A program made the translations under genes and the position numbers. This document shows, piece after piece, positions 9,097-49,865 of a DNA stretch of 64,000 nt. The stretch lies in the NCBI RefSeq assembly GCF_965152275.1, contig NC_134234.1:39458920-39522919 (forward strand), given 5' to 3'. This DNA comes from Natator depressus (lineage: Eukaryota). Every line of letters starts with the position of its first letter. Position 1 is the first letter of the stretch. The notes below the pieces were generated by a model, which saw nothing but the letters and a program-made list of their open reading frames with translations, searched no databases and was not told the DNA's origin.

Positions 9097-11560
9097 CATA
9101 GAATCATAGAATATCATGGTTGGAAGGGACCTCAGGAGGTCATCTAGCCCAACCCCCTGCTCAAAGCAGGACCAATCCCTGATTAAATCATCCCAGCCAG
9201 GGCTTTGTCAAGCCTGACCTTAAAAACTTCTCGGGAAGGAGATTCCACCACCTCCCTAGGTAACGCATTCCAGTGTTTCACCACCCGCATAACGAAAAAG
9301 TTTTTCCTAATATCCAACCTAAATCTCCCCCACTGCAACTTGAGACCATTACTCCTTGTTCTGTCATCTGCTACCACTGAGAACAGTCTAGATCCATCCT
9401 CTTTGGAACCCCCTTTCAGGTAGTTGAAAGCAGCTATCAAATCCCCCCTCATTCTTCTCTTCCGTAGACTAAACATCCCCAGTTCCCTCAGCCTCTCCTC
9501 ATAAGTCATGTGTTCCAGTCCCCTAATCATTTTTGTTGCCCTCCGCTGGACTCTTTCCAATTTTTCCAAATCCTTCTTGTAGTGTAGGGCCCAAAACTGG
9601 ACACAGTACTCCAGATGAGGCCTCACCAATGTCGAATAGAGGGGAACGATCACGTCCCTCAATCTGCTGGCAATGCCCCTACTTATACATCCCAAAATGC
9701 CATTGGCCTTCTTGGCAACAAGGGCACACTGTTGACTCATATCCAACTTCTTGTCCACTGTAACCCCTAGGTCTTTTTCTGCAGAACTGCTGCCGAGCCA
9801 TTTGGTCCCTAGTCTGTAGCGGTGCATGGGATTCTTCCGTCCTAACTGCAGGACTCTGCACTCATCCTTGTTGAACCTCATCAGATTTTTTTTGGCCCAA
9901 TCCTTCAATTTGTCTAGGTCCCTCTGTATCCTATCCCTACCCTCCAGCATATCTACCACTCCTCCCAGTTTAGTGTCATCTGCAAACTTGCTGAGGGTGC
10001 AATCCACACCATCCTCCAGATCATTTATGAAGATATTGAACAAAACCGGCCCCAGGACCGACCTCTGGGGCACTCCACTTGATACCGGCTGCCAACTAGA
10101 CATGGAGCCATTGATCACTACCTGTTGAGCCCCACAATCTAGCCAGCTTTCTATCCACCTTATAGTCCATTCATCCAGCTCATACTTCTTTAACTTGCTG
10201 GCAAGAATACTGTGGGAGACCGTGTCAAAAGCTTTGCTAAAGTCAAGGAACAACACGTCCAGTGCTTTCCCTTCATCCACAGAGCCAGTTATCTCGTCAT
10301 AGAAGGCAATTAGATTAGTCAGGCATGACTTGCCCTTGCTGAATCCATGCTGACTGTTCCTGATCACTTTCCTCTCCTCTAAGTGCTTCCGAATTGATTC
10401 CTTGAGGACCTGCTCCATGATTTTTCCAGGGACTGAGGTGAGGCTGACTGGCCTGTAGTTCCCAGGATCCTCCTTCTTCCCTTTTTTAAAGATGGGCACT
10501 ACATTAGCCTTTTTCCAGTCGTCCAGGACCTCCCCCGATCGCCATGAGTTTTCAAAGATAATGGCCAATGGCTCTGCAATCACATCCGCCAACTCCTTTA
10601 GCACTCTCGGATGCAACGCATCCAGCTTCATGGACTTGTGCTCGTCCAGCTTTTCTAAATAATCCTGAACCACTTCTTTCTCCACAGAGGGCTGGTCACC
10701 TTCTCCCCATGCTGTGCTGCCCAGTGCAGTAGTCTGGGAACTGACCTTGTTCGTGAAGACAGAGGCAAAAAAAGCATTGAGTACATTAGCTTTTTCCACA
10801 TCCTCTGTCACTAGGTTGCCTCCCTCATTCAGTAAGGGGCCCACACTTTCCTTGACTTTCTTCTTGTTGCCAACATACCTGAAGAAACCCTTCTTGTTAC
10901 TCTTAACATCTCTTGCTAGCTGCAACTCCAGATGTGATTTGGCCTTCCTGATTTCACTCCTGCAAGCCCGAGCAATATTTTATACTCATCCCTGGTCATT
11001 TGTCCAATCTTCCACTTCTTTTAAGCTTCTTTTTTGTATTTAAAAGCAGCAAGGATTTCACTGTTAAGCCAAGCTGGTCGCCTGCCATATTTACTATTCT
11101 TTCTACACATCAGGATGGTTTGTACCTGTAACCTCAATAAGGATTCTTTAAAATACAGCCAGCTCTCCTGGACTCCTTTCCCCCTCATGTTATTCTCCCA
11201 GGGGATCTTGCCCATCAGTTCCCTGAGGGAGTCAAAGTCTGCTTTTCTGAAGTCCAGGGTCTGTATTCTGCTGCTCTCCTTTCTTCCTTGTGTTAGGATC
11301 CTGAACTCGACCATTTCATGGTCACTGCCTCCCAGGTTCCCATCCACTTTTGCTTCCCCTACTAAGTCTTCCCGGTTTGTGAGCAGCAGGTCAAGAAGAG
11401 CTCTGCCCCTAGTTGGTTCCTCCAGCACTTGCACCAGGAAATTGTCCCCTACATTTTCCAAAAACTTCCTGGATTGCCTGTGCACCGCTGTATTGCTCAG
11501 TATGGATGCTCTTATGATCTTATGAAGAATCCACGCCCCTGAGCACTGCAGTTATGCCAA
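9097..11560 (-). mobile_element. CR1-family LINE, minus strand, tail-to-tail with the previous copy
   Basis: The 580-aa ORF 9183-10925 (-) is a complete CR1 RT domain (FADDTKL...YLEYCVQFW...). ORF 11021-11485 (-) is the upstream ORF2 linker. The 3' UTR at 9097-9182 carries the ...gggctagatgacctcctgaggtcccttccaacc... tail motif. Confidence 0.8.
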
Positions 11561-15771: not shown

Positions 15772-16420
15772 GTGACTTCTACCAATGTGATATATGCCCC
15801 TCTGCCATATACATTGGCCAAACCGGACAGTCTACGCAAAAGAATAAATGGACACAAATCAGATGTTAAGAATTATAACATTCAAAAACCAGTCGGAGAA
15901 CACTTCAACCTCCCTGGACACTCAATTACAGACCTAAAAGTCTCAATTATTCAACAAAAAAACTTCGAAAACAGACTCCAACGAGAAACTGCAGAACTGG
16001 AATTAATTTGCAAACTGGACACCATTAAATTAGGCTTGAATAAAGACTGGGAGTAGATGAGTCATTACACAAACTAAAAACTATTTCCCCATGCTAATTT
16101 TCCCCCTACTGTTACTCACACCTTCTTCTCAACTGTTTGAAATGGACCATCCTGATTATCACTACAAAAGTGTTTTTTTTCTCCTGCTGATAATAGCCCA
16201 CCTTAATCGATTAGTCTCGTTAGAGTTGGTATGGCAATCCCATTTTTTCATGTTCTCTGCATATCTATCTATCTATCTATCTATCTTCTGACTGTATTTT
16301 CCACTGCATGCATCTGATGAAGTGGGCTTTAGCCCATGAAAGCTTATGCGCAAATAAATTTGTTAGTCTCTAAGGTACCACAAGTACTCCTCGTTCTTTT
16401 TGCTGACACAGACTAATGTG
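15772..16420 (+). mobile_element. PLE fragment: GIY-YIG endonuclease region and 3' tail
   Basis: The plus strand encodes CDICPSAIYIGQTGQS (GIY-YIG core), then a frameshift, then LRKRINGHKSDVKNYNIQKPVGEHFNLPGHSITDLKVSII...LGLNKDWE. The characteristic PLE 3' tail follows: ...catctgatgaagtgggctttagcccatgaaagcttatgcgcaaataaatttgttagtctctaaggtaccacaagtactcc... Confidence 0.7.
16263..16286. repeat. (ATCT)n microsatellite
   Basis: atctatctatctatctatctatct. Confidence 0.95.
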
Positions 16421-17052
16421 GCTACCACTCTGAAACATATATTCTCTGTAATTTTATTCTTTCAAAGTGTGTTATTTTAGTGTTTTGACTGGTCTATGCA
16501 TTTCATAATTTTTATTTCTCTTACACTTAAATTGAATTCTTTGAGTAGTGAGTTCTATAATGCCTATAATGTTCTGTCCTGGCTGGAGTAATTATCCCTA
16601 TTTAACTTTTTTAAAATATATATTATATCTAGGTTTTTTGTTTCTACTGGTGGCATACATCCGCACATACCTTGGTGCACATAACAAAATTTATTCTGCA
16701 CATGGATGGAAAAAATTAGAGGGAACATTTGATTGACACACTTTTTGTTAGCCACCAACCTTTATCATACAAGTTGTAGAGGGAATCAAACTTTAATAGA
16801 AACCATCCTCTCAACAAAATGTCGTATGTGATGTTCCTGTCATTGTGCTTAAATACATTTAGGATTCCTTTTTTGTGGGTCTTCTGTATAGATTCTTTTG
16901 TGTACCAGGGAACATGTTTTTAAAGATATGCATCTGATTACTCACAACTCCAATTCTGTTTGCATTTCTGAAAACGGAGCATCACTGAAGAAGTACTGAC
17001 AGCACGGAATGATAGGGAAAAATGAGAGGAATACATTTCTTATTTCTTTCAG

Positions 17053-22546: not shown

Positions 22547-24070
22547 GTATGTGTTTCCATTAAAATATCTCATTACTGTCTATATGTCTCTAAAAATTCT
22601 TTAGAAAATAACTGAAAAGAAAAACAATTACTGTAATCTTGTAAGAATTAAAGCACATATTGCTTAATATTATCACAGTGAACAATTTTAGTTCTTTTAC
22701 AGAAGAACTAAAATTATTTTTGCAAAAGCTTGTGTTCTTTGATGCTTTTTGAATTATATGTTACTTTCCTTATGAAGCTTCTTTTATATCATACGTTGTT
22801 GGAGTACCTAGGCATCCAAACAAAGTCTGTTTCTATCCCATCCACTACCCAGACTGGATGTTTGCAAGTGAACCAACAGAGAGGCATAATCTCTGTGTTT
22901 ATTTTGGAGATACTTGCTTTTTTAATGATTTAGAAACTGCAATTTTCTTTTTGTATCTGTGTATGCATGTGGCAGAGTTCAGAACTGTGCAAGTGTTCTG
23001 ACTTTGGGACTATATCTGTAGGCACAACTCCTATAAAGGCACCATCTCTGGTCCAGAAAGAACTTTTTAATCTAGAAGAACAATACTTTTACCCTGTAGT
23101 GCTGCAACTGTAATTGAAAGAAACTGTTTGGATTGCAGGCAGCAAGTACTGTGTCTTCCCATATGTCTGTACAGCATCTAGCACGTTAGGAACTATTATA
23201 GTATAAGTAATACTAATAGTTATTAATTATTATTTATTTAGGATTATAAGTATACTAAAGGAAAATAATCAATTCCCTATTACGGTATAATTATCTGAAT
23301 GTCATGGAGGGCATTGAGTAAGTTGGGATAACTTAAGGAACAGGAGACGTCCATATTTTGGACCATTACATTGTACTGCATTTAAAACTAAAAATAGGCT
23401 GGCACAGATTTTGTTCATAGAAATAAATATTGTTTTGTTTGTGCCTTTTAAGAATATAACTTATACATTTGACAGATGTCATCGCATGTATAATATCCCA
23501 GCAATCCTATGTAATAGTTATTGGTGGAATTATTGTCCCTTTCTTGTAAATAGGGCTCCTTAATCAGCCAAAGATTTACTGTTAAGCTCTGTGTGGCACC
23601 CCTCCACACTTGGCCACTACCTCCCTAGCAAAAATCTAGTCAGAGCTTTCACTCTTCTGGCAGTTCTTGCTCTGATTTTCAGACAATGTAATCATCTGTT
23701 TTGTTACCTCCTGGTAATGATCTTTATATAATACAAATTTTATAAATAAAGTGCCATTCTACTCAGGCTCTCTGATTACTGTGAAATATCATAAACAACA
23801 GTTAAACGTAAACAGTATAAACTTGGCAGTATAAAAATCAGATAACCTGCTAAAAAGCATACTGGTTCCAATACATTGGAAAACATCTTTATCATATACA
23901 TGTATAATAAATCAGGTCATGTGTCTTGTACATATATCAGAAAAAAGGAAATTTAAACATCATCTTTGTATATTAGGATTCTGTACATTCATCTACCATA
24001 TTCCAGACCTCTGCATTATACTCACAGAAGAAATACTCTTTTCTTTTCGTAATCTACAATATGTTGGTGT

Positions 24071-25020
24071 GTTTGGTTGCTCTTAACCATTGACTTATAT
24101 ACGGGAGTTGTGATGGGGAAGTGACACATGAGTAACAGCTGACATCCAAAATTAAAAACTGTCTGATTGATCTGCCCGCTGAAAGCAAGTGAGAGGGTAA
24201 TTTCTGAACTGAAGTTACATAAGATACAGAAGAGGTTTCTCAAAATACTTGGAGGTGCACTGCCAGTGTTGTGTGCCAGTCCATTTACTACCAATAGTGT
24301 GTTATGATACGACAACCCTTAATGCAGTCAGGCATTATAAAGTTACATTTACTCCGTGTTTGTGTATACTGAGCATCTTTTGTATACTGAATGCACCTCC
24401 TCTCTATATTTCCTCGCAAGTTTCACCCAGCATTTGACTCTCAACCTTACATTGTCTGATAGAGAAGGAATCTCTGGCATAACAAGCATCACTTTTAAGG
24501 ATTATAATAAAATTAAAGACAGTTCTCTAGTTTGTAATTCTGTTGCGTTTTAATTTAGGATGTTAATGAAGTTCAGCATGCTGGTCTTCCAAACATTCTT
24601 GAACTTATAGCTGAGGAAGATATAGACTTTTTACCCTACATGGACTGGGAACATGAGACATCTGGACATGGATACCTGTCTTCTAATAGAGGAGTGGGAT
24701 TTGGCAGATGTGAATCGGTAAATATGCTTTATGTGTTCTTGTTTTTAACATTTTTTGTGTATTACCCAGTTGTGGTAGTAGATGGTTTATAAGGTAGCAG
24801 TTGGTAGTTGTTTATAAAGTCTGCACCATTTCTTATTATTCTGGATGCAATTAATTTCATAAATGTTTGTGTGAAGTGCAAAAAATCAGAGTACTCTCTC
24901 CCAAAGAAAGGCAAGGTACATAAAAGGTGGTGTGGCATCAGGCCCCATTGCAGCAGAGATCTTTGAGAGAGAAGAGGATTCTAGTGGCCCTTTACTCTCT
25001 TCCAGGATAAATTCTTCCCT
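24071..25020 (+). repeat. Segmental tandem duplication, unit 1 (intron plus exon 24560-24718)
   Basis: Nearly identical to 26884-27822 from gtttggttgctcttaaccattgac through ...ccaggataaattcttccct. Spacing is about 2.8 kb. Confidence 0.85.
24560..24718 (+). CDS. PARP4: Coding exon, copy 1 of a tandemly duplicated exon
   Basis: Acceptor ttttaatttag|GATGTT and donor GAATCG|gtaaat. Frame DVNEVQHAGLPNILELIAEEDIDFLPYMDWEHETSGHGYLSSNRGVGFGRCES. 159 nt, phase 0 to 0. Confidence 0.65.
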
Positions 25021-26883
25021 TTCCATCCAGGGTCTTATACCATGCTTTCATGCTGCTGTTTCCCTCTCTTGGGAATATATACTTTATATATACTGCGCAT
25101 ATATATATATGCTTACTTATTAACAAGGAATGTACAGAAAACAAAAAATAGTTTCTTTGCTTATAGCCCCAAGCCTCTTTGGGTCTAGTGCTAGCTAAAG
25201 ATCTCTCTCCCTTGCTTTTTCAGGGTTTTATACCATACTTACATTACAGGCTGCTGCTTCACTTTTTTGTGCCATGTCTACACTACCAATTTGTGTCAAC
25301 AGAAGTGATGCTGACATAATAAAAATCATAATTTCGTGTTCATTCTTGCTCCCTCTGTTGGCAGATCATGTCCACGGTGTGGCCTCCCTCCGATCCACAG
25401 GGGGAGGAACCACTTTATGTGCCTGGGTGGGTGGAGTCAGGCCGGGTTCACCCTTCTCACTGGAAATTGAGAGACAGGACGGGAAGTACAAAAAGAGGAA
25501 CCTTCAGCTCAGTTGGAGCCGAGCCAGGGCAGGAGACAGGCGAATATTGCTCGCTGCTGGCCTCTTACTCTGCTGCTGAACCAAGCGGTGCCCTGACCCC
25601 AGAGGAGACCAAGTCCAAGGAGGAGCTGCTGATGGCTGTGTACCCCCAGGAGATGGACGACACCTACAGAGCCCAGGTACCAAACAAAGAGGTAGTAGAA
25701 AGTGGCCCAGGGACACTAGACCATAGTCTGGTTGCATGGTTGCCTGAATCCAGGTCTGTGTGTTTCAGGCGGATCCCCACTGACCCACTGACAGAACATT
25801 CTGCCACTTATAGCCTGGGGCTGAGAACCAGTGGAGTAGGGAGGGCCTGGGTTCCCCTACCCCCTGGTGTTAAACCTACCCCAGGGGTGGCAGCCTCCCC
25901 ACCATAGGTGAAAAGGCCTGTGTTTGTCTGCTGTCTGCCAGATCTGAGACAACAATCTGTGTAGTGCTCTGCCCTGCACGAGGGCCAGAGCCTATAGCCT
26001 GCTTGTTAGCTCTGCTGTGCTGGAGAGCCAGAGCCCACAGACGGTTTGGTGTGCCACCCCACCGAGAGGGTCAGGGCATTAGCACCTGATTTGCTAATTC
26101 CCCTGATGTTAAGCAGTGACCCCAGTGACATAATGAGGCAGTGTGGCTTCTCTCCGACCCAGATGGGGAGGGACAACCACCACCGCACTACATACCCCTT
26201 TTTGACCCAAGCAGCTAATCAAAATTTGAGGCCCTGGTATTCCAGTTGGGGGTAGAAATTGATGAAAGACTCTGCATCAAAAAATATCCTGATCTTGCTT
26301 ATTAACAAGGAATGTATGAGGTCCTGGGTCCCCGAAGGTAGGAGGAACCAGGAAACAACAAACAGTTTCTTTGCTTATAGCCCCAAGCCTCCTTGGGTCT
26401 AGTGCTAGCTAAAGAGCTCTCTCCCTAGTTTTTTCCATGGTCTTATACCATGCTTTCAGGCTGCTGCTTCCCTTTCTTGCTGTTTGTCTCTTTGGGATTG
26501 GGTATGAACGCACCCTACAATTAACATAACTGGCAGGATATGTCAAGCAGGAGCCCCTGCCCACCCAAGACAAAAGCATCTGTGAACCCACCCAGGGAAC
26601 ATGCATACACTCCTTGCCGAAACCCCATTCACCACTCAGTCCAAAACTCCTGGATGGGTTCACAACCCCTTATGGCTTAGGTGAGGAGGTCGTGCTTAAC
26701 TTACCCTGACAGTCATGTTAATTGTAAGAGCGCAGTCACATCTAATTTCAAAGATGTTTTAACTAAGCCCATAACAATACCTTCCCTTCCACCCTGCTAT
26801 ACACATCCTCACCCAAGATCCCACTATGGATAAGGTCCTGTGTAAATCATGATTTCATGGATTACATGGAAATCCATGAAACA

Positions 26884-27822
26884 TGTTTGGTTGCTCTTAA
26901 CCATTGACTTATATACGGGAGTTGTGATGGGGAAGTGACACATGAGTAACAGCTGACATCCAAAATTAAAAACTGTCTGATTGATCTGCCCGCTGAAAGC
27001 AAGTGAGAGGGTAATTTCTGAACTGAAGTTACATAAGATACAGAAGAGGTTTCTCAAAATACTTGGAGGTGCACTGCCAGTGTTGTGTGCCAGTCCATTT
27101 ACTACCAATAGTGTGTTATGATACGAAACCCTTAATGCAGTCGGGCATTATAAAGTTACATTTACTCCGTGTTTGTGTATACTGAGCATCTTTTATATAC
27201 TGAATACACCTCCTCTCTATATTTCCTTGCAAGTTTCACCCAGCATTTGACTCTCAACCTTATATTGTCTGATAGAGAGGGAATCTCTGGCATAACAAGC
27301 ATCACTTTTAAGGATTACAATAAACTTGAAGACAGTTCTCTAGTTTGTAATTCTGTTGTGTTTTAATTTAGGATGTTAATGAAGTTCAGCATGCTGGTCT
27401 TCCAAACATTCCAATGGCTCCAGAACATTTAGACTTTTTACCCTACAAGAACTGGGAGCATGATACATCTGGATACCTGTCTTCTAATAGAGGAGTGGGA
27501 TTCGGCAGAAGTGAATCGGTAAATACGCTTAATGTATTCTTGTTTTTAACATTTTTTGTGTATTACCCAGTTGTGGTAGTAGATGATTTATAAGTTAGCA
27601 GTTGGTAGTTGTTTATAAAGTCTGCACCATTTCTTATTATTCTGGATGTAATTAATTACATAAATGTTTGTGTGAAGTGCAAAAAATCAGAGTACTCTCT
27701 CCCAAAGAAAGGCAAGGTACATAAAAGGTGGTGTGGCATTAGGCCCCATTGCAGCAGAGATCTTTGAGAGAGAAGAGGATGCTAGTGGCCCTCTACTCTC
27801 TTCCAGGATAAATTCTTCCCTG
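26884..27822 (+). repeat. Segmental tandem duplication, unit 2 (intron plus exon 27372-27518)
   Basis: Paralog of 24071-25020. Identity is high in the intronic parts, with divergence concentrated in the exon. Confidence 0.85.
27372..27518 (+). CDS. PARP4: Coding exon, copy 2 of the duplicated exon (in-frame paralogous exon)
   Basis: Same splice signals as copy 1, inside a duplicated block. Frame DVNEVQHAGLPNIPMAPEHLDFLPYKNWEHDTSGYLSSNRGVGFGRSES. 147 nt, phase 0 to 0. The sequence cannot show whether it is spliced in. Confidence 0.45.
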
Positions 27823-28059
27823 TCTGTCTAGTCCAAGGCCTTGTTTTCTTTAGAGTACTCAGATGGTGGTACTTCTGTCAGTTGTATTGCACTGATTGAC
27901 GTACCATTAACTGTCCAGTGTAGCCACCCTGAATCAGGGTAAGGCTTGTCCTTGCTTAGATCGATTTAGATGTGGGATGTCATATATCCCTCAGCTGGTA
28001 AACCTCCTTCGTTTGCTGGCGGAGTCCTCCTCTCTTACATCCACCATGCCTCATTCAGC

Positions 28060-28270
28060 ACCCACAATATACTGTACTTGTGGCACCTTAGAGACTAACC
28101 AATTTATTTGAGCATAAGCTTTCATGAGCTACAGCTCACTTCATCGGATGAAGTGAGCTGTAGCTCACGAAAGCTTATGCTCAAATAAATTGGTTAGTCT
28201 CTAAGGTGCCACAAGTACTTCTTTTCTTTTTGCGAATACAGACTAACACGGCTATTACTCACAATATACT
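28060..28270. repeat. Perfect palindrome made of two inverted PLE 3' tails
   Basis: ggcaccttagagactaaccaatttatttgagcataagctttcatgagctacagctcacttcatcggatgaagtgagctgtagctcacgaaagcttatgctcaaataaattggttagtctctaaggtgcc. The centre is near 28144. Confidence 0.85.
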
Positions 28271-28909
28271 GCTACCCCTTGTTGACCCAAACAGCCAGTA
28301 AAAGTTTGAGGCCTTGGGGATGTTCTGGTTGGGGGTAGAAATTGATGAAAGAGTCTGGTATATTTGTTAATGCAGTCTTGCTTATTAACAAGGAATGTTC
28401 AAGGTCCTGTGTCTCCAAAGGCAGGAGGAACCAGAACACAAAAAATAGTTTCTTTGATTATAGCCCCAAGGCTCTTTGGGTCTAGTGCTAGCTAAAGATC
28501 TCTCTCCCTTGCTTTTTCAGGGTCTTATACCATACTTACATTACAGGCTGCTGTTTCACTCTTTTGGGCCATGTCTACACTACCAATTTGTGTCGACAAA
28601 AGTGATGTCGACACAATAAAAATCACAATTCCATGTTCACACTTGCTCCCTCTGTCGCCAGATCATGTCCACAGTGGGGGCACCATCATCGACAGTGTGA
28701 ATAATGCACTGTGAGTACCTATCCCACAGTCCTTCTGTCACTAGGTGTTGTGGGATGACGGAGTGAATCATGGCACATCTTGGGACGTGTTAAATATCCC
28801 GTGATGCATTGCTTTCTGTCCCAGCACTCCATGAGCTTCCGACTTCCTTTTGCGGCGTTTTTTCAACGGCCCTTCTTTGCTGTGAACCCGGGCATTTTTG
28901 TGAGAAGGG

Positions 28910-30160
28910 TTGGATCCCGCACTGCTCTCCTATGCTCTGTTAACTGTCATGAAGACATTGCGGATGGCAGTGCAGTTAATCGTGAAGTTTCTAACTGAGG
29001 AAGACTCACAGGTGCCTGACGTTCTGCGTGATATGAATAGGAGCAACTTTAGATTGCTTTTGGCATTCACTGAGCAGGTGCATAGGATAGACCGTCACTT
29101 TTGGGCTCATGAAACAAGCACTGAATGGTGGGATCGCATCCTCATGCAGGTGTGGGATGATGAGCAGTGGCTATAGAACTTTCGGGTGCAGAAAGCCAGC
29201 TTCCTGGAACTATGCTTGGAGCTTGTCCCAGACATGCGGCTCAAGGACACCAGAATGAGAGCTGCCGTCTTGGTAGAAAAGCGTGTGGCAATTGCTGTGT
29301 GGAAGCTGGCAACTCCAGACTGCTACCAGTCAGTCATGAATCAATTTGGAGTGGGGAAGTTGACCGTTGGGGCTGCGTTAATGCAAGTGTGCAGGGCAAT
29401 AAATTGCATCCTGCTACGAAGGACTGTGACTCTGGGAAATGTGTGTGAAATAGTGGACAGCTTTGCAGAAATGGGGTTCCCTAACTGTGGAGGGGCGATA
29501 GATGGCACACGTATTCCAATTTTGGCACCAGACCACCTTGCGACGGAGTACATCAATAGGAAGGGATACTTCTCCATGGTGTTGCAAGCGTTTGTGGATC
29601 ACCATGGGCATTTCACTGACATCAGCATAGGGTGGTCTGGGAAGGTGCATGATGCACACATCTTCAGAAACAGCGGCCTCTACAGAAAGCTGCAAGCAGG
29701 GACTTTCTTTCCTAACCAGAAGATTGGGGGGGGAGGAGGGGGTGTTGAAATGCGCATAGTGATCCTGCGGGACTCTGCGTACCCCTTGCAGCTGTGGCTC
29801 ATGAAACCTTACACGGGACACTTGGACAGCAGTAAGGAGCAGTTCAACAACAGGCTCAATAGGTGCCGGATGACAACTGAATGTGCCTTTGGCAGATTAA
29901 AGGCACACTGGCGATGCCTTCATGGTGGGTTGGACCTCACTGAGGATAATATTCCTGTGGTCATAGCCATGTGCTGTATGTTGCATAATCTCTGTGAAGC
30001 TAAGGGTGACAGGTTTGCTCAGGAGTGGAGTGCTAAGGCAGACCGCTTGGCCGCTCATTTTGAGCAGCCAGATACCAGGGCTGTCAGAGGTGCACAGAGG
30101 GGAGCTATTCGAATCAGGGAGGCTGTGAGGCAGCACTTTGACAATGACCACCATTAATAT
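28910..30160 (+). pseudogene. Harbinger (HARBI1-like DDE_Tnp_4) transposase with a single in-frame TAG
   Basis: ORFs 28910-29176 and 29186-30157 are in the same frame and separated only by TAG at 29177-29179 (..DDEQWL*NFRVQKASF..). The second ORF has the HARBI1-like motifs GAIDGTHIPI, DAYPL and LHNLC. Total length is about 416 codons. Confidence 0.75.
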
Positions 30161-31727
30161 ATATCTGTGTCTGAGTTGCTTCAATGTTACATGCCATGTA
30201 GTTTTCTAGGGGGCAATAGTGACATTTGGAGCCTTATATTCCTGTAATAAAGTGATCAAAATGCCTGTGCATGTATTAGCAGTGCCTGCAATCTCACCTT
30301 GTAGAAAAAAATTAAAGATGATTTACCATTATAAAAGTTTGCTTTTATTGCACAAGAAACAGCGCGCACACAAACACACAGATGCTTGCCAGGAAAGGAG
30401 GAACCAGGGAAGGGCAGACTTTCACAGCTGCGTGGAGGTCCAGCTATCATTGTGAAAGTTGTCTGAGGAGGTGAAGTAAAGGGGAAACGAAGAATCCTGG
30501 AAGGTAGAAAGGAATGTGTGGGCGGAACTTGGGGGGCAGGGAAGAGAGTTCTGAATGTACTGCAGTGGAGATTGAGCACTGATCTGCTCAGTCTGCAGCA
30601 TTATTAAGGACTTCATCATCTGCATTTTCTCCTCCATTACTTTAATCATCAGCTCAGTAGCGTCCTTAACAAATGTGTAATTCTCTTTTCTGTCCTGCCC
30701 TTCAGCTTCACAGCATTCCTTTCATTCCCTTTTTTCTGCATTGGATCACTGCAGGACCTCCCGGAACATGTCTTCTTTGCTGCATCTTGAGCGCTTTCTT
30801 ATCTGGTGGAGACTCTCGGCCGGGGTGCGTGGGGCCTGAAGGCCACGTCTGGTGAAGCACAGGGTTACAATGCACAGAAGCAAGATTATTAAATTCACGC
30901 ACAGAATTGAAACATTTCTGTTAAATACACCTTTTACAACATTGCAATCACTTTCTCACTGACCCTAGCCAGGCACACATCTCTGCAAACACCCAAAGCA
31001 TTCTGAGTGTTGGTGTGGGGGCGGGGGGTCCACATGGAGAAAAGAGCACACACTCTTTGCAAGGGTCATGGTGCAGCATACTAGGGAACAAATTCTAAAA
31101 TTCTCCCACACTTTTCCACAGGCGGGAGTCATTCTAGCAGATATCTCACTGCTAAGGGTAAGCAGGGAAACGAGGATACTCCATGCTTGTGGCTTCTGCC
31201 CTGCTCCCTATGCTGCTCGCCTGTGTGCTGCTTTGGTCCCTGCACAAGTGATTGCCGAATGGTGCAGAAAAGTTTCCTACAATGGGGAAGGAACAAAGCT
31301 GCTCTGCCACGGAACCTTCAGCAGAGGATTACCGAGTACCTCTAGGAAACTTTTCTGGAGATCTCTCTGCAGGATTCCCATGAGATCTCAGCGTGCATCA
31401 ACACCCTGTTCCGCTGTACTGATTAGCTACACAGGGAAATGTCCATCTCACAGAAACACAGTCAGGCTCCCACATTTCTATGCCCTGAACCCACGTCTCC
31501 ACGACACAGGCCACAGCCACTTACCAGGAGTTTCATCTCCTGCTTCTTGCTCACCAGAGAGCAACTGCTGAGACTGGCTAGACACCTCTGGAGTGGAGAA
31601 CCGTTCCTGGCTGCCTGCCCCACCGGACGACCCAGCTGGGAGCTGCACATCCTCATCTAACTCCACCTCTTTATCAATAACTTCGTCCTTGGGTTAGGTC
31701 CTCTTTCTGCCACCACAGGGCTCTTGG

Positions 31728-32078
31728 CTATCCACCAAGGTTAGCGTCCAGCTCCTTATAGACCCAGCAGATCTTAGGTGCAGCACCAGAGCGACGGTTT
31801 GCCTCCCTCGCCTTATGGTACGCCTGCCTCAGCTCCTTTATTTTCGCTCTGTACTGCAGCGTGCCCTGATCACAGCCCTTTTCGCACAAGTCTCGAGAAA
31901 TGTGCCCATAGGTATCCCATTTCCTATGGCTTAAGGCAGCTGTGACTGCACAGCCTCCTCTCCCCATATGTTGATCAGATCCAACAGCTCTGCAGTGGTC
32001 CAAGCAGGAGAGCTTTTGCTGCGATAACCCACCATGGTCACCTGGGAAGATGCGGTGAGACCTCTTCACTCTGAGCAA
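31728..32078 (-). pseudogene. Myb/SANT-like (Harbinger partner protein) ORF fragment of copy 1
   Basis: KIKELRQAYHKAREANRRSGAAPKICWVYKELDANLG matches the Myb-like DNA-binding domain of Harbinger-associated proteins. It is homologous to the intact-looking gene at 41555-43202. The downstream part (30420-31700, -) is frameshifted. Confidence 0.55.
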
Positions 32079-32890
32079 ACAGGAAATGGAATTTCAAAAA
32101 TTCCCAGGGCTTCTAATGGGCAGGGGCGGATGGTTGTTTACCTGGCTGCGGGGCAGTGGAGTTCAAACTGCTGACCAGAGCAGTCAGAATGGGCATTGTG
32201 GGACACTTCCTGGAGGCCAATTAAAGAGATGAAATGAAGCATGGTGTCTACACTTGCATTTTGTCAACCAAAATTTAGAGGAAAAAGACATAAATCTCTC
32301 ATGAGGGTGGATGTATTTTGTCGCCAAAACCAGGCATTTTCCCTGACAAAAGTCACCTTGCAGTGTCTACACTGTTTGGGTCGACAAACAGCAATTTTGG
32401 TGACAAAACTTGGTAGTGTAGGCAAGGCCTTGCTGTTTGCCTCTTTGAGATTGGGTATGAATGCACTCTACAATTAACATGACTGTCATGATAAGTTAAG
32501 CAGGACCCACCCCTCATAAAACAAAAGCAGTTGTGAACCCACCCAGGGAACATACATATCAAAACAACATTCAGAATAACCCCATTAACCACTCAGTCCA
32601 AAACTTCTGGGTAGGTTCACACTCCTTTTGTCTTTGGGGGGCATTCTGCCAACCTTATCCTGACAGTCATGTTAATTGTAGAGTCCATTCACACCCAATT
32701 TCAAAGATGTTTTAATTTAGCCCATAACAAGGTTTCACCCAGCTCATAAGAATACCTTCCCTTTCACCCTGTTCTACAGGTCCTCAGCCAAGATCCCACA
32801 ATGGGTAAGATCCTGTATAAATCATGAGTTCATGAATTGCATTGAAATTGTGAAATACCTCACTATTAAAAATGTGCACCTTATTTCTAG

Positions 32891-33807
32891 TCCGAATTTG
32901 CCTGGCTTCAGCTGCAAGGAAAGAAGTTGCTTGTTTAATTGACAAGAAGAATAGGCTTTGTGTTGAGCATGATGATCATTGGATTGATACTGAGTCTAAT
33001 GAAAATATGGTCTTAATCACAAAAAAAAAAGTTGGTTTAAACTCCAGAAATATTTTGTTTTCTTATAATTTTACTCGACAGGTTCCTTTTCATGCAGTAA
33101 CTAGTGGTTTTTCTGACCATTTCCTAACTGGAGGAGATAAACAGCTGAAAAGTCTCCAATTTCGAAGTGACAAAGAAGTTCCCTTGGTTGAAGAGTGCAT
33201 TTTACCAGATTCTACTGAATTGAGTTTTATAAAGGCTGCTAAAGTTAAATATGATCCTGGTGCCGCTGGAGTTGGACTATTTGGGTCTATCTCTGTGCCA
33301 CAACCAAAATTCAGCCTGCATGGTCAATCACTTTTAAACATCAGGCTTCCCAAGCCTCCAGCTAGTAAGCCTTTTTCTTTTCAAGTTTCTATACCTCCTC
33401 CTTGCCCTCTTCCTGGTGCTGCTTCTTGCCCTCCTCGCCCTCCTCCTTGCGCTCCTCCTTGCCATCCTCCTTTCCCTCCTCCTTTCCCTCATGAATTCAC
33501 TCAGGGGCTTTGTTCAGATTTAAAGAGTTCATTTACTCCTGTGGGCAGAACCCTGAAGAAGGCAAATTTTGAAACACAAGTTACTCCTGAAGTTCTTACT
33601 TCATCAGCTAGGTTCAGACTAGGATCACCAATGCTACAAACTGCACCAAAGTGTGGAGAAAAACTTCATCGTGAGCTCAGCAAGGTTAGTAGAAATCTGA
33701 ATTATGCTTTGCCTTTCTCTGATGTTGAACATGCAGCCAAAACAAACAGGAGTAGTTGCTCTCGATCGCATTGGACTTCTGCATCAAGGGATACTGAAGA
33801 AGAGGAG
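32891..33807 (+). CDS. PARP4: Large proline-rich coding exon (305 codons)
   Basis: Strong acceptor ccttatttctag|TCCGAA and donor GAGGAG|gtaaat. There is a single long open frame, RICLASAARKEVAC...SIPPPCPLPGAASCPPRPPPCAPPCHPPFPPPFPHEF...DTEEEE. It needs 1 nt from the upstream exon (phase 1), which does not match the phase-0 end of the preceding exons (see findings). Confidence 0.55.
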
Positions 33808-34045
33808 GTAAATTCTGCTCTTTTATAGTGATTTATATTTTGGAGGTTTAATTAACTTTTAATGGAGTGATATAAACTTAGATCTTGTTTCTTCCACCCT
33901 TATTCATGTTGATTAATCTTACTTTACTACACTAGTAGTCTCATAGATCTCAGTGGAATTAGTTGTGTGATGAAGTACTATTTAATATGAATAAGGCAGA
34001 ATCAGGTTCTTAGTGACTATTTCTGGTTTTGTTTTGTTTTTAAAG

Positions 34046-35379: not shown

Positions 35380-37100
35380 ATGGAACAGCCATACTGGATC
35401 AGACCAATGGTACATATAGCCTGCTATTCTGTCTTCTGACAGTGCCTGAGCCCAAATGCTTCAGAGGGAATGAACAGAACAGAGCAATTATTTACAGATC
35501 CGTCTCCCGTCATCCAGTCCCAACTTCTGGCAGTCTGAGTCTTAGGACACCCAGAGCATGGGGTTGCATCCCTGACCATCTTGGCTAATAGCCATTGATG
35601 GACTTGTCCTCCATGAACTTATCTAATTCTTTTTTGAACCCAGTTATATTTTTGGCCTTCACATCATCCCTGGTAATGAGTTCTACAGGTTGACAGCGTT
35701 GTTTGAGGAAGTACTTCATTTTGTTTGCTTTGTTTACAATAATTTAATCAGGTGACCCTTCATTCTTTTGTTATGTGAAGAGGTAAATAACACACTTCCT
35801 TATTCACTTTCTCCACACCATTCATGATTTTATAGGCCTTTTTCATATCCCCCTTAGTCGTCTCTTTTCTAAGCTGAACAGTTCCAGTCTTTTTAATTTT
35901 TCCTCATATGGAAGCTGTTCCATACCCCTAATCAATTTTGCTTCCCTTCTCTGTATTTTTTTTCAATTATAACATATATTTTTTTGAGATGGGTCAACCA
36001 AAACTGCACACAGTATTCAAGGTGTGAGTTTACGATGGATTTATATAGTGCATGATGATATTTACTGTCTTATTATCTATCCCTTTCCTAATGGTTTCTA
36101 ACATACTATTATCTTTTTTATCTGCCTCTGCACATTGAACAAATGTTTTCAGAGAACTATCCACAATGACTCCACAATCTCTTTTTTGCGTGGTAACAGC
36201 TAATTTAGACCCCTACATTTTGTATGTATAGTTGGGATTATGTTTTCCCATGTGCATTTCTTTGCCTTTATCAACATTGAATTTCATCTGGCATTTTGTT
36301 GCCCAGTCATCCAGTTTTATGAGATCTCTTTGTAACTCTTCACAGTCAGTTTTGGACTTAACTATCTTAAGCAATTTTGTATTATCTGCAAACTTTGCCA
36401 CCTCACTGCTTACCCCTTTTTCCAAATCGTTTATGAATATGTTGAACAGCACTGGTACCAATACAAACCCATGGGGGACCCCGCTATTTACCTCTCTCCA
36501 CTATGAAATCTGACCATTTATTCCTACCCTTTGTTTCCTGTCTTTTAAGCAATTACTGATCCATGAGAGGACCTTCCGTCTTATCCCATGACTCCTTACT
36601 TTGCTTAAGAGCCTTTGGTGAAGTATCTTGTTAAAGGCTTTCTGAAAGTCCAAGTACATTATATCTCCTGGAGCTCCCTTGTCCACATGTTTGTTTATCC
36701 CCACAAAGTATTATAATAGATTGGTGAGGCATGATTTCTCTTTACAAAAGCCATGCTGACTCTTCCCCAGAAATAGTGTTCATCTATGTGTCTGATAATT
36801 CTGTTGTTTACTATAGTTTCAACCAGTTTGCCTGGTACTGAAGTTAGTCCTATTGGCCCGTAATTACCAAGATAGCTTCTGGAGCCTTTTTTTAAAAATC
36901 AGCATTACGTTAGCTATCCTCTAGTCATCTGGTACAGAGGCTGATTTTAGGTGATAAGTTATATACCACAGTTAGTAGTTCTGCAATTTCATATTTGAGT
37001 TATTTCGGAACTCTTGGATGAACACCATCTGGACCTGGTGACTTATTACAATGACTGTCAATTAATCGCAGTTAAACAAGTGATTAACACAAAACAAATT
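35380..37100 (-). mobile_element. CR1-family LINE fragment (minus strand)
   Basis: Minus-strand ORFs 36213-36461 and 36501-36704 carry CR1 RT motifs (FADNTKL, NPNYTYKM). The reverse-complemented CR1 3' end lies at 35390-35640 (..ggctattagccaagatgg..). Confidence 0.75.
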
Positions 37101-38277: not shown

Positions 38278-40006
38278 AAGTCAGTCTAGATATCTCAAGA
38301 GATTCACAACGTTTGCGCCTGGCAGGCAATTCACCATGTGGTTCTCCTGGTCATCACAAACGCAACTATATTTCTAATAATTGAATCCTCCATTACTATT
38401 ACCAGTCTGTAACATACCAAGGCACAATCTAGACCAGTGGTCACCAACCGGTTGTTCTTCTTTGAGTAGTGTCCCTATGAGTGCTCCGCTGTAGGTGTAT
38501 GTGCGCTCTTGCGCCTCTAATCAGAGATTTTTGGTAGCAGTGTCCGTTGAGCCCATGCATGTGCTCTCCTTCCCTCCTGGTCTGGCACTGCAGGGGCGAA
38601 GCCCCCTCACTTCCTTCTCAACCGCCTTTGGCCTCAAACAGAGCGAGCAGTCATCCCTTCCTTATCTGTGTCATTAGCATAAGTAGTAGTCGTGTTTTTG
38701 TTTCTTTTGGTCTCCTTAATCGTTAGTGTTTCATTTTTATTTACTCCTTTGGGATTAAAGGAGAAAAAAAGAGAAAGAAAGAAAAAGAACTTTAGTTTCC
38801 TGCCCCGTCTGAGGGCACCCCCACCTCCCAGGCATTTAGTAGACTCTAAGTTTTTCAGTTTATTTTTTAAAAAAAAAGAAAATAAAAAGGAAAAGAAGAG
38901 AAGGAGTAAAGAAGACCTTTTTCTGCATTCCCCACTGCTAGAGGATGATAGCCCCCTGCCAAGGGGCATGCCTGGTTCTCCCTGCTCCAAGAGGTGCCTC
39001 TCCTACAAGGAGTCAATTCCTGTAATGGCCAGACACTCTTACTGTGTCTGGTACCTGGGAGAGCCTCACGGAAGTGCTTCACCTGCCACAGCTAAAACAG
39101 CAGTCTCGCAGGAACTGGGACCTGAAGTTAAAACTCCTCCTTATGGAGAAGGTACTTCAGTCTCCAGGGGACTCCGGGGTTGACCCCGGATCATCCCTGG
39201 AGCCTCTAAAGGTACGTCTACAGTACGAAATTATTTCGAAATTATTCTATTCAAATTTTTGGAAGCAATTTTATACATTTGGTCTTGTGTGTCCCCACTA
39301 AAGCACGTGAATTCGGTGGAGTGCATTCACAGTACCGAGGCTAGCATCGAATGTCAGAGCGGTGCACTGTGAGTAGCTATCCCACAGTTCCCGCAGTCCC
39401 CGCCGCCCATTTGAATTCTGGGTTAAGCTCCCAGTGCATGATGGGGCAAAAACATTCTCGCAGGTGTTTCTGGGTGTGTGTCATCAGTTGCTCCTCCCTC
39501 CGTGAAAGCTACGGCAGACAATCGTTTTGCGCCTTTTTGGTGTGCAGACACCATACTGCTTTCAGTAGATGGTGCAGTACGGTGCACTGCTTCTCTCCTA
39601 GTACTTTGAATCCACCTCGCATTTCCTCTTGTCTTTCTATGTAATCTCTATAAGTATCTACTCTTTCTATTCCTCATCAACCGCTTCCACTGCCAACTCT
39701 GCTTGGCCATCATGAACCGAGCAGCAGAGCTTCCACCGCCAGCTCTGCTCTCCCGCTCTTGCCGCGCTACCGAGCTTCTCCATGTTGTCTGTCTTGGATC
39801 CCGCCTCCGTGAAAGCTACAGAAGACAACCATTTCCCACCTTTTTTTGTTTATCGTGAACCAAACAGCACCTCTTCCGCTGCCACTCTGCTCTCCTACAT
39901 TTCATGCCCTTTTTCCAGGATTACCCGTGCAGGCGCCTTAGCGCAGCAAGCCGTGGAGCCGCTATAGTTTTGACCATTGTAAATACCTCGCCCATTATCC
40001 AGCAGT

Positions 40007-41408
40007 ATGTGCAGTACCTGCAAAACCAGGCGAGGAAGCAACAATAGCACGATTACTATACTGCTGAGGACATGGATCCAGACATTCTTAGAAGCACAGC
40101 ATGTGGCAATTGGGAGATCATGGTGGCGTTGGGCCAGGTTCATGCCGTGGAACGCTGATTCTGGGCCCGAGAAACAAGCACAGACTGGTGGGACCGCAAA
40201 GTGTTGCAGGTATGGGATGATTCCCATGGCTGCGAAACTTTCGTATGCATAGGGCCACTTTCATGGAACTTTGTGACTTGCTGTCCCCTGCCCTCAAGCA
40301 CAAAGACACCAAACTGAGAGCAGCCATCACAGTTGAGAAGCAAGTGGCCATAGCCCTGTGGAAGCTTGCAACGTCCAACAGCTACCGGTCAGTCGGGAAT
40401 CAGTTTGGAGTGGGCAAATGAGGGGAGAGGGATAGCTCAGTGGTTTGAGCATTGGCCTGCTAAACCCAGGGTTGTGAGTTCAATCGCTGAGGGGCCATTT
40501 AGGGATCTGGGGCAAAAAAAATTGGGGATTGGTCCTGCTTTGAGCAGGGGGTTGGACTAGATGACCTCCTGAGGTCCCTTCCAACTCTGATATTCTATGA
40601 TTCTATGAAATCTACTGTGGGGGCTGCTGTGCTGCAAGTAGCCAATGCAGTCATTGACCAGCTGCTATCAAGGGTAGTGACTTTGGGAAATGTGCAGATC
40701 ATCGTGGATGGCTTTAATGCACTGAGGTTCCCTAACTATGGCGGGGCGATAGGTGGAACGCATATCCCTATCTTGGCCCCAGAGCATCGGGGTGGCCAGT
40801 GTGTAAACTGCAAGGGGTACCTTTCCATGGTGCTGCAAGCACTGGTGGATCACAAGGGACGTTTCACCGACATCAACGTGGGATGGCCGGGAAAGGTGCA
40901 TGACGCTCGCATCTTCAAGAACTCTAGTCTGTTTGAACAGCTGCAGGAGGGGACTTACTTCCCAGACCAGAAAATTACTGTTGGGGATGTTGAAATGCCT
41001 ATAATTATCCTCGGGGACCCAGCCTACCCCTTAATGCCATGGCTCATGAAGCCGTACACAGACACCCTGGACAGTAGTAAGGAGCAGTTCAACTATAGGC
41101 TGAGCAAGTGCGGAATGGAGTTAGAATGTGCTTTTGGATGTTTGAAAGTGCACTGGTGCAGTCTACTGACTTGGTTAGATCTCAGCACAACCAATATTCC
41201 AATCGTAATTGCTGCTTGTTGTGTGCTCCATAATATCTGTGAGAGTATGGGGGAGACGTTTATGGTGGGGTGGGAGGTTGAGACAACTCGCCTGGCAGCC
41301 AATTTCGCACAGCCAGACAACAGGGCAATTAGAAGAGCGCAGCAGGGCGCACTGCACATCAGAGAAGCTTTGAAAGCCAGTTTCATGACTGGCTGGGGTA
41401 CGGTGTGA
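40007..41408 (+). pseudogene. Harbinger transposase, copy 2, disrupted
   Basis: It is homologous to 28910-30160 (..FWARETSTDWWDRKVLQVWDDS.., ..PWLRNFRMHRATFMELC.., GAIGGTHIPILAPEHRG..). It has a stop near 40140, a frameshift near 40225, and a SINE insertion at 40414-40608 that splits the ORF. Confidence 0.8.
40414..40608 (+). mobile_element. tRNA-derived SINE with a CR1-type tail, inserted in the transposase ORF
   Basis: tRNA-like head gggatagctcagtggtttgagcattggcctgctaaacccagggttgtgagttcaatc (A and B boxes). The tail ggttggactagatgacctcctgaggtcccttccaactctgatattctatgattctatg is shared with the CR1 3' UTRs at 9097-9182. Confidence 0.8.
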
Positions 41409-41554
41409 CAGTTGTGTTTGTTTCTCTTGAAGTTACCCGCCCCCTATATATATGAAGGGAAATAAAGTCACAATTGTTTAAAAAACGTTCTTTATTATTT
41501 GTTGCACAACACATTGAGAGAAATCAGAAGATAGACCCGGGGGCGGTAATTGGG

Positions 41555-43202
41555 TTAAGGGGGTGGAGCAGGAGGGAAGGACAAGTCCAGAAACCAAATC
41601 AAAATTTCGGATATGCCAGCTTTCTGCTGCTTGTGCAATCGTCTGGGGTGGAGTGTGTGGGTCCCTGTAGCCTTCCCGCCGCCCCCCCGTGTTCTTGGGC
41701 GCCTGGTTGAAGAGGCTATGGAACTTGGGGAGGAGGGAGGGCGGTTATACAGGGGCTGCAGCAGCAGTCTGTGGGCTTGCTGCCTTTTCCGCATTAGATC
41801 CACCATATAGCGGAGCATGTCAGTTTGCTCCCCCATGAGCTTGACCATAGCATCCTGCCTGCTCTCATCGCATGCACCCCTCCTCTCTTCCTGTTCTTTT
41901 AACACTTTACAGGACTCTGCAATTGTTTGCCTCCACACATTCAGCTGGGCCCTATCAGTGTGGGAGGACTGCATGAGCTCGGCGAACATGTCGTCCCGAG
42001 TTTGTTTTTTCCACCTTCTAATCTGGACCAGCCTCTGGGACGGAGTAGATAGGGGCCGCATTGAAATATTTGCACCTGCGGGAGGAGAAAAAGGGAGGGT
42101 AGTATTTTAAAAGATTAATTTTAGAGAACAAAGGTGACACTCTTTCCCAGTGAAACAGGCAATTCATAGTACACAGCACATGTTCTTTCTGTACAAGGTC
42201 ACATTTTGCCTCTTACACTGAAGTGCCTGCCACTTTGGTGTGAGTAAGCCATCACACATGGCCGGGCAACAGAATTCAGCTTGCAGGCAGCCATGTTAAG
42301 CCCTAGGGGCACACAGGTTCTGCTTCTTCCAAATTCATTTCAATGCTTTCAAACTGCCGGGCCCCCTTTCCCATAGCAAGCAATTCCTGGTGGGTTTGCC
42401 ATATAAAAGGAGGGCCTGTGGGCTTTCTGGGATGATTGCTTCACACAACACACACCCTCACCCACTGCATGGCTCCGATGAGGCTCTGAGCAGGGATGAG
42501 CCATTTAAACTAAACGCGAACAGCCCCGTGCGGCTGGGTTTTCCCCCACCCCTCACCGCGTGGCTCCATTCAGGCTCTCACTCACCAGAAATGCCTTCTC
42601 CAGGGTCATGGTCTGGGAGCCCACCTTGGGAGTCGGGGGAGGCTATTGGGTCCAGCGTTAAGAATAATTCCTGGCTAGGGTTGGGAAACGGATTCCCCAC
42701 TTGCCACCTGTGCACTGTCATCCTCCTCCTCCTCCTCCAATAACTCATCCTCCTCGCTCTGTGCAACTCCCCCCTTGCAGGTGTCCATGGACAGTGGTGG
42801 GGTAGTGGTGGCATCACCCCCCATAATAGCATGCAGTTCACGATAGAAGCGACATATATGGGGCTGTGACCCAGAGTGCCTGTTCACCTCCCTGGCTTTT
42901 TGGTATGCTTGCCTGAGCTCCTTGATTTTTGTACGACATTGCTCTGTGTCCCTGGAGTAGCCTCTTTCCGTCATGGCCCTGGAGACTTTAGTGTACGTAT
43001 TTGCGTTTCTTTTTTTGGAACATAGTTCTGCCATAACAGATTCATATCCCCAACATGCAATGAGATCCAGTACCTCCCGTTCAGACCATGCTGGAGCTCT
43101 TCTGCGAATCCGGGACTGCATGGTCTCTTGTGATGGTGGAGTCTGTATGGTCACCTGTGATGGTGGACTGTGCTGATGGTCACCTGTGCTGATGGTGACC
43201 AA
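41555..43202 (-). CDS. Harbinger-associated Myb/SANT-like DNA-binding protein gene, apparently two exons
   Basis: ORF 42675-43202 (-) includes WSEREVLDLIACWG...CRTKIKELRQAYQKAREVNRHSGSQPHICRFYRELHAIMG (Myb-like) and an acidic tail. ORF 41555-42061 (-) encodes the C-terminal part. Putative intron: donor CAA|gtgggg near 42650 and acceptor tttctcctcccgcag near 42060. Confidence 0.5.
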
Positions 43203-48939: not shown

Positions 48940-49260
48940 GGAGCCCACACCCCAACCCTCCTCCTGGAGCCAGCACCCCATACCGCCTCCTGCAACCAAA
49001 CCCCCTCCTGCACCCCAAGCCTCGGCCCCAGCCCTGAGCCCTGTCTCAGAGCCAGCAGGCCATACCCCCTCCTGCACCCCAACACTCTGCCCCAGTCAGG
49101 AGCCCCCTCCTGCACCCAAACTCTCTGCCAGAGCTTGTACCCCTCACTCCCTCCTGCACCCCAATCCCCTGCTCCAGGCTCAGCCTGGAGCCCCCTTCCA
49201 CACCACAAACCCCTTGGCTCCAGCCCAGACCCCGCACCCCCTCCCGAACCCTAACCCCCT
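48940..49260. repeat. GC-rich minisatellite, unit about 50-60 bp
   Basis: cccctcctgcaccccaa(c/t)(c/a)c(t/c)ctgcccca-type units are repeated. The overlapping long ORFs on both strands are artefacts of low complexity. Confidence 0.75.
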
Positions 49261-49734: not shown

Positions 49735-49865
49735 GAGTAACAGCCGTGTTAGTCTGTATTCGCAAAAAGAAAAGGAGTACTTGTGGCACCTTAGAGACTA
49801 ACCAATTTATCTGAGCATAAGCTTTCGTGAGCTACAGCTCACTTCATCGGATGCATACTGTGGAA
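49735..49865 (-). repeat. PLE 3' tail copy (reverse orientation)
   Basis: agtaacagccgtgttagtctgtattcgcaaaaagaaaaggagtacttgtggcaccttagagactaaccaatttatctgagcataagctttcgtgagctacagctcacttcatcggatgcat. Confidence 0.8.

Follow-up and report, generated by a model that had tools for sequence, protein, structure and literature searches.

A Harbinger transposon and its empty-site paralog in the tandem exon array of turtle PARP4

The window and its PARP4 exons

The DNA analyzed here, referred to as the window, is a 64-kb stretch from the flatback turtle, Natator depressus. It is the flatback PARP4 gene, as follows from the identity of the N. depressus PARP4 protein (P0006) to every exon translation of the window, including that of the open reading frame in segment Y. 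A homolog search retrieved PARP4 homologs from many turtles, and an exhaustive HMMER search with the exon at 33082-33684 returned one protein, the PARP4 of Caretta caretta (95% identity). This exon is long and proline-rich, and turtle species differ greatly in its length and in the number of its repeats. Its position and composition make it the probable counterpart of the largest PARP4 exon of mammals, in which positive selection has been described (Daugherty et al. 2014, PMC4038475). The part of the gene treated below is built from the following segments.

24066-25021, forward strand: D_A, the proximal repeat block with PARP4 exon E_A (24559-24717); 95% identical to D_B
25391-26192, forward strand: Y, unit sequence between a fragment of the Harbinger element H1 and segment X, with PARP4 exon E_Y (25557-25676), located by tblastn
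26878-27821, forward strand: D_B, the distal repeat block with PARP4 exon E_B (27372-27518); begins 1-5 bp past the end of X
27822-28272, forward strand: Z, unit sequence between D_B and X'; aligns to all three units of Chelydra serpentina

Exons E_A and E_B comprise 53 and 49 codons, respectively, and have intact splice sites and reading frames; E_A is identical to the corresponding part of P0006. The two exons differ at 9.5% of their sites and by two in-frame 6-bp indels, and almost all of the differences are non-synonymous. The A-type exon (24559-24717) reads ...NILELIAEEDIDFLPYMDWEHETSGHGY... with the core NILELIAEEDID..., and the B-type exon (27372-27518) reads ...NIPMAPEHLDFLPYKNWEHDTSGY... 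with the core NIPMAPEHLD.... Because both types recur in several cryptodire families, the exon duplication in turtle PARP4 is ancient. Y is homologous to positions 50019-50515 and 54634-55129 of the Chelydra locus.

Segment Z is interrupted by a 185-bp hairpin element (28075-28259) that is flanked by the 12-bp target-site duplication (TSD) cacaatatactg, with 28063-28074 repeated at 28260-28271. The element is missing from the orthologous Chelydra site and is 97% identical to the copy near 49.8 kb (49735-49853), so it is a young insertion. Another hairpin copy lies in the window at 16311-16430, and related copies occur at the Chelydra locus and at that of Emydura macquarii. A scan of 23000-34000 against Rfam gave sub-threshold chance matches only, on the hairpin element. 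Elsewhere in the window, two copies of a 1.6-kb LINE-like repeat (7504-9098 and 35395-37049) stand in inverted orientation with 78% identity, and at their 3' ends they carry a ...ctgggctagatggac... motif that we take to be CR1-like.

The Harbinger element H1

28567-32429, forward strand: Harbinger-1 (H1), a decayed autonomous PIF/Harbinger element of 3,863 bp, recognized by its terminal inverted repeats (TIRs); its Chelydra ortholog is L001 59564-64598
28910-30157, forward strand: transposase pseudogene of H1 with one in-frame stop; Pfam DDE_Tnp_4 (PF13359)
31728-32035, reverse strand: remnant of the second H1 gene, Myb/SANT-like, with a frameshift and stops; Pfam Myb_DNA-bind_4

An inverted-repeat search delimited the TIRs of H1 at 28567-28608 and 32388-32429 as 42-nt arms that are 81% complementary. 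The transposase is of the DDE_Tnp_4 / Plant_tran type and matches PF13359 (DDE_Tnp_4) over its full length (1-158 of 158, E=6.6e-33) and PF04827 with E=9.8e-6, and after correction of one frameshift the translated second gene matches PF13837 (Myb_DNA-bind_4) with E=1.8e-12; a transposase gene paired with a Myb/SANT-like gene is the two-gene architecture of PIF/Harbinger elements (PMC4482050). The closest turtle homologs of the H1 transposase are 76% identical at best, with no orthologous annotated copy among them, and exact look-ups of the H1 ORF and of proteins P0001 and P0002 found nothing on record. Turtle Harbinger transposase homologs number more than 460 at E<=1e-60.

Other Harbinger sequences are present in the window. 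H2 (~39209-43529, ~4.3 kb) has a transposase region 68-73% identical to that of H1 and the TSD TAA, and its best match in a transposase homolog search is 86-89% identical; H3 (58631-59722) is a 1.09-kb non-autonomous relative with the TSD TTA; and a solitary Harbinger left end at 18519 is preceded by TGA. The TIRs of H2 and H3 share a GTCTACA core with those of H1, and their TSDs are canonical TWA. The TSD of H1 is TTG and falls outside TWA; TWA is a preference at the level of the family, and H1 is a single off-consensus insertion.

The empty paralog and the insertion site

26193-26877, forward strand: X, the empty-site paralog, with its left part at 26193-26479 and its right part at 26480-26873 (or 26877); matches both Harbinger flanks and is orthologous to the empty Chelydra copies X1 and X2
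26477-26479, no strand assigned: single TTG, the unoccupied target; also single in both empty Chelydra copies
26489-26756, no strand assigned: palindrome of ~270 bp in the right part of X, an inverted self-match
28273-28566, forward strand: X' left flank, with the left TSD as its last three bases; 91% identity to L001 59259-59563 of Chelydra
32430-32848, forward strand: X' right flank, starting with the right TSD (TTG, 32430-32432); BLASTN and alignment

When this region was compared with the window by BLASTN, 26193-26479 matched the left flank of H1 at 28273-28566 (80.7% identity, E=1.4e-71) and 26476-26873 matched the right flank at 32429-32848 (77.5% identity, E=9.7e-93), so that the two matches adjoin in the query but are separated by 3.86 kb in the subject. 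The flanks of the filled copy were then concatenated with one TTG and aligned globally to 26150-26900, which gave 577 matches, 163 mismatches and no gap at the junction. At that point the empty copy reads ...gctgcttccctttcTTGctgtttgtctc, also given as ...ccctttcTTGctgtttg, with its single TTG at 26477-26479. The filled copy reads ...tttcactcttTTG/GGCCATGTCTACAC at its left junction (...cactcttTTG/GGCCATGTCTACAC..., the slash marking the junction; TSD 28564-28566) and GTGTAGGCAAGGCC/TTGctgtttgcctc at its right junction (...GTGTAGGCAAGGCC/TTGctgtttg; TSD 32430-32432). H1 is accordingly bounded by a 3-bp TSD, with TTG on both sides in the filled copy and one TTG in the empty copies, and the base-level comparison found no excision footprint at the empty junction. 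The ends of the TIRs, obtained from the independent inverted-repeat search, coincide exactly with the junctions.

Junctions, TSD and element identity are therefore seen directly. Both flanks align contiguously to a single uninterrupted sequence that has the TSD once. In 26193-26873 the segment bearing the Harbinger has a paralog whose site is unfilled, and this paralog sets the ends of the element and its 3-bp TSD. An earlier note on this DNA had proposed that the flanks of Harbinger copy 1 match 26190-26880, that they join there directly with no transposon, and that this copy fixes the insertion boundaries; the flank identities (81% left, 77.5% right), the gapless single-TTG junction and the base-exact agreement with the TIR ends bear it out, and inspection of the aligned junction for a TSD or a footprint found the TTG duplication and no footprint. 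Because TTG also stands in the empty paralogs of both species, this trinucleotide is the real target of H1 rather than the product of later mutation. The palindrome at 26489-26756 begins ~10 bp to the right of the target site, has a predicted RNA fold of -118 kcal/mol (z = -4.9), and occurs in all X and X' copies of Natator, Chelydra and Emydura.

Orthologous loci in two other turtles

Comparison at the DNA level covered the loci of two other species, Chelydra serpentina (L001) and Emydura macquarii (L002); Caretta and Trachemys were represented by predicted proteins. In Natator the filled and empty copies lie inside an intron of PARP4, and in Chelydra that intron contains a tandem array with a period of 4,623 bp, in which units U1 (48753-53375) and U2 (53376-58031) are 96.7% identical and are followed by a partial unit U3 that consists of D and Z (58032-59276). 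Both full units have the order D-Z-Y-X-W, and the X of each (50515-51098 and 55129-55722) is without the element and has TTG once. After U3 come X'L (59259-59563), H1 (59564-64598) and X'R (64599-65040), and the Chelydra H1 has TTG on both sides and the same TIR as in Natator. At 5,035 bp, as against 3,863 bp in Natator, this ortholog is longer by ~1.2 kb. Of the additional sequence, ~870 bp (L001 59901-60770) follows element position ~340, and it was either inserted in Chelydra or deleted in Natator.

The 2.3-kb Chelydra segment W (L001 51100-53375 and 55740-58031) has an exon at 51632-51835 and 56286-56489. This exon (VVFPQANTAAFLSGQ...IRCLENEQ) is also found in PARP4 proteins of Caretta, Lepidochelys, Mauremys, Gopherus and Chrysemys. 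A match to the W exon or to the segment is lacking throughout the 64 kb of Natator DNA, in which X directly adjoins D_B.

At the locus of Emydura macquarii, the pleurodire outgroup, there is one D with one E_A-like exon and one X (58697-59470), that is, a single D+Z+X unit, and no Harbinger TIR or body was found there. About 190 bp around the Emydura target site have undergone rearrangement, with a poly-C run and another small insertion taking the place of part of the sequence, so that emptiness in this species means absence of the element, the TTG not being preserved at base level.

Since X or X' lies downstream of D+Z in all Chelydra units, adjoining it in U3 and separated from it by Y in U1 and U2, the two are positional paralogs and not dispersed repeats. 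The contrary reading takes X and X' to have been inserted independently, as copies of a dispersed repeat family such as a CR1-like retroposon, with Y+X bridging a young 1.3-kb tandem duplication. It would fit the sharp ends of X and X' and their unrelated flanks in the window, the weak octamer-like CATG repeat at the 3' end, the 5 CpG dinucleotides in X as against none in X', and the placement of Y+X exactly between two 95%-identical blocks, and an L1-bridged tandem duplication has a published precedent (PMC7058536). We nevertheless regard it as extremely improbable, given that Y holds a PARP4 exon conserved across turtle families and has neither a reverse-transcriptase nor any other Pfam domain, that Y and X stand downstream of D+Z in both full Chelydra units, that the Emydura X follows D+Z as a single copy, that both exon types are trans-specific, and that the 3' repeat is unconvincing (TRF 33).

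More specific proposals were rejected as well. The conserved PARP4 exon at 25557-25676 means that Y is not a recent insert, and together with the occurrence of X as a unit component elsewhere it rules out Y+X (25391-26877) as a retroposon-like insertion bridging the duplication. CR1 elements are characterized by a 3' hairpin, an octamer microsatellite and variable 5' truncation (PMC4316615). X has only a 2.2-copy 9-bp repeat with a TRF score of 33, the CR1 3' ends in the window differ from it, and in Emydura it is a single-copy unit component; a CR1-like identity was therefore dismissed. Searches for hidden homology between Y and Z, D and XL, Z and X, and the post-X' sequence and D gave nothing above shuffled controls, and an exact 21-mer of X had no match in JGI metagenome contigs.

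All X'-clade members contain H1, and no X-clade member does. The empty state is by parsimony ancestral and the filled state derived, given the lack of H1 in Emydura and the division of the other copies into an empty X clade and a filled X' clade. The clean TTG at 26477-26479 would look identical if H1 had been present before the duplication and had later been lost from the X copies, as PIF/Harbinger elements usually excise precisely and restore a single TSD (PMC4561436), and a clean site is in itself no bar to excision. We consider such a loss very improbable, since in two species the X clade is empty throughout, the X' clade is filled throughout and the unduplicated outgroup has no element; the proposal would require duplication of a unit ~4-5 kb larger, excision before the X clade diversified and an independent absence in Emydura. 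An old precise excision is thus unparsimonious. The first reading of the window had left the empty copy as either pre-insertion or excised; with element-free X-clade copies and an element-free Emydura locus, the former is favored and the latter disfavored. Its further expectation that the order of duplication and transposition could be read from these copies is borne out by the two empty and one filled copies in Chelydra and the single element-free unit of Emydura. In Trachemys, a predicted isoform ending in ...GES/IMSTVGVPSWTV reads into H1-like sequence after the B exon; to judge by this predicted protein, H1 may also have been in place before the split from emydids.

A third copy of the left flank

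25082-25269, forward strand: XL_A, the third left-flank copy, with a 32-bp deletion, ending in TTG at 25267-25269; groups with the X' clade
25270-25390, forward strand: first ~120 bp of H1 including the left TIR, duplicated with XL_A; one mismatch to the TIR probe

XL_A has the 'cttacatta' indel of the X' clade and differs from the filled left flank by a K2P distance of 0.046. At its junction (25267-25290) it reads ttttTTG/TGCCATGTCTACACTACCAA, and no Harbinger homology was found past ~25390. The copy near 25080-25380 had earlier been thought to stop at the equivalent of ~26420; it runs instead to the junction TTG and continues into ~120 bp of Harbinger. Because these first ~120 bp are included, 25082-25390 is a copy of the filled site, a fragment from a second, partial duplication later than the insertion. 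The Chelydra locus has no counterpart of the fragment. A predicted Caretta PARP4 peptide, ...CES/IMSTVWPPSDPQ, reads from the H1 fragment into Y, which as a predicted protein implies that the fragment is also present in Caretta.

The third copy is joined to Y across a 14-bp ambiguous overlap at 25377-25390. In predicted PARP4 isoforms of Natator and Caretta, 25366-25678 is an exon whose AG acceptor lies inside the duplicated Harbinger 5' fragment; its peptide starts IMSTV..., enters Y (...WPPSDPQGEE...DDTYRAQ) and is followed by a GT donor at 25679. The annotation raises the possibility that transposon sequence has been exonized here.

Several features close by fall outside the explanation that we favor. 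A fourth left-flank fragment (25012-25075), comprising 62 bp of the 3' end of the flank, directly follows D_A; it ends at the shared ...cTTG(gg) point, is about equally similar to all other copies (72-76% identity), is followed by a TA-rich stretch and is not accounted for by the best explanation. The same holds for a 37-nt direct repeat (25377-25413 and 26141-26177, 81% identical) that brackets Y, the second copy of which resembles the start of the Chelydra Y. Both full Chelydra units are missing a counterpart of 25884-26279, a stretch of 396 bp that includes the first 87 bp of X.

Divergence and probable gene conversion

The K2P distances separate the copies directly into two clades. Within the X clade (Natator X and Chelydra X1 and X2) they are 0.05-0.11, with one outlier in the left flank, where Natator X and Chelydra X1 differ by 0.196 in a poor alignment; within the X' clade (Natator X', Chelydra X' and the Natator A fragment) they are 0.056-0.096; and between the clades they are 0.15-0.26, rising to 0.35 for Chelydra X1. 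The X/X' split is thus about three times older than the Natator/Chelydra split, divergence being an unreliable clock in the array owing to gene conversion, and the H1 insertion is on the stem of the X' clade.

The D blocks behave differently. D_A and D_B are 95-96% identical (K2P 0.038) and their first 245 bp are the same, a fivefold contrast between the 0.04 of these blocks and the 0.20-0.22 that separates the empty from the filled copy. In Chelydra the paralogous D blocks are 93.6-96.7% identical, whereas orthologous D blocks are only 90-92.5% identical. Within D, the exon differs at 9.5% of sites as compared to 2.5-2.9% in the surrounding intron (Fisher p=7e-4). Because paralogs are more alike than orthologs, yet the exon cores are trans-specific, we infer gene conversion of the D blocks as the simplest reading, with the introns in concerted evolution and the exon cores escaping it. 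The duplication predates the divergence of Natator and Chelydra and the blocks have been homogenized, so that the 95-100% identity of 24066-25021 and 26878-27821 is no measure of the age of the duplication.

Taken at face value, the K2P of 0.038 between D_A and D_B and the nearly open transposase frame of H1 would suggest a young segmental duplication, with ~4% divergence between its D blocks, after which one of the copies would recently have received the Harbinger. There is scarcely any chance that this is so: Chelydra has the same insertion, X and X' are separated by the far larger distance given above, the proximal unit also contains an H1 fragment, the lower identity of orthologous than of paralogous D blocks points to gene conversion, and the nearest transposase homologs are only 76% identical. 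The contrast of 0.04 with 0.20 had also raised the idea that X is no partner in the duplication at all; it was set aside, as the cross-species data put the low value down to gene conversion.

A proposed history of the array

We consider it very probable that the locus arose by tandem duplication, insertion of H1 into a distal X before the Natator/Chelydra split, a partial re-duplication and conversion of the D blocks. The ancestral state would be a single unit, with block D and one coding exon followed by Z and then X, as in Emydura. In the hidden-necked (cryptodire) lineage this unit would have been tandemly duplicated, giving rise to exon types E_A and E_B and at least two X copies. Cut-and-paste transposition would then have brought a PIF/Harbinger element into the last unit, where it entered X at a TTG ~10 bp to the left of the 270-bp palindrome and duplicated this TTG, while the remaining X copies would never have been struck and their target would have stayed a single TTG (in 26193-26873). 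The insertion would precede the split of the flatback and snapping turtle lineages, after which the element would have decayed in place. Direct presence/absence data from the three species stand behind the succession of single unit, duplication, H1 insertion and Natator/Chelydra split, and parsimony gives the direction of the events.

In the sea-turtle lineage, the left flank and the first ~120 bp of H1 would subsequently have been duplicated upstream (25082-25390) and joined to Y, by a secondary duplication whose mechanism we infer from the copies. The insertion of the hairpin element at 28075-28259 is placed after this re-duplication, and the last step would be that by which segment W and its exon came to be missing in Natator. 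Throughout, gene conversion would have held the D blocks 95-100% identical within species, and X and X' would have drifted to ~20% divergence.

Significance and comparison with known systems

Taken alone, the finding is correct but ordinary, a piece of well-documented transposon biology that amounts to routine annotation: for one decayed Harbinger copy, the empty paralog establishes the ends, the TSD, the non-canonical landing in TTG and a relative date. The H1 site is also a well-anchored marker that, with Chelydra and Emydura, orders four events in turtle PARP4, namely unit duplication, Harbinger insertion, partial re-duplication and continuing gene conversion, and it cautions that blocks of 95-100% identity in the window are no evidence of recent duplication. 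The more interesting object is the PARP4 exon array itself. Tentatively, and with appreciable doubt, we suggest that the H1 site marks an old tandem array of PARP4 exons with converted introns and distinct exon cores, and that the 5' end of H1 (IMSTV...) may be spliced into some isoforms. If selection keeps the exon cores apart, a candidate gene of host-virus conflict would here have diversified through duplication of its exons. The long variable exon at 33082-33684 follows directly downstream of the array, a setting that would match the rapidly evolving PARP4 region described in mammals around the largest exon (PMC4038475). In that work the change consists of substitutions in one mammalian exon, whereas here it consists of tandem duplication of a small neighboring exon in turtles.

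As a transposon, H1 agrees with the PIF/Harbinger group of the PHIS superfamily (Han et al. 2015, PMC4482050) in its DDE_Tnp_4 transposase, Myb/SANT-like gene, TIRs, 3-bp TSD and length of ~4 kb, and differs from it in having landed in TTG rather than TWA and in being a decayed pseudogene. The empty-site record is a standard paralogous case for PIF/Harbinger, made unusually secure by the orthologous loci. As in the paralogous empty-site analysis used to establish the TSDs of PHIS elements (PMC4482050), an element-free copy of the flanks with one TSD fixes the ends of the element. Unlike in that analysis, the empty copy is a positional paralog within the tandem array of a gene and not a copy of a host repeat, and the case is further supported by orthologous filled and empty loci in other species.
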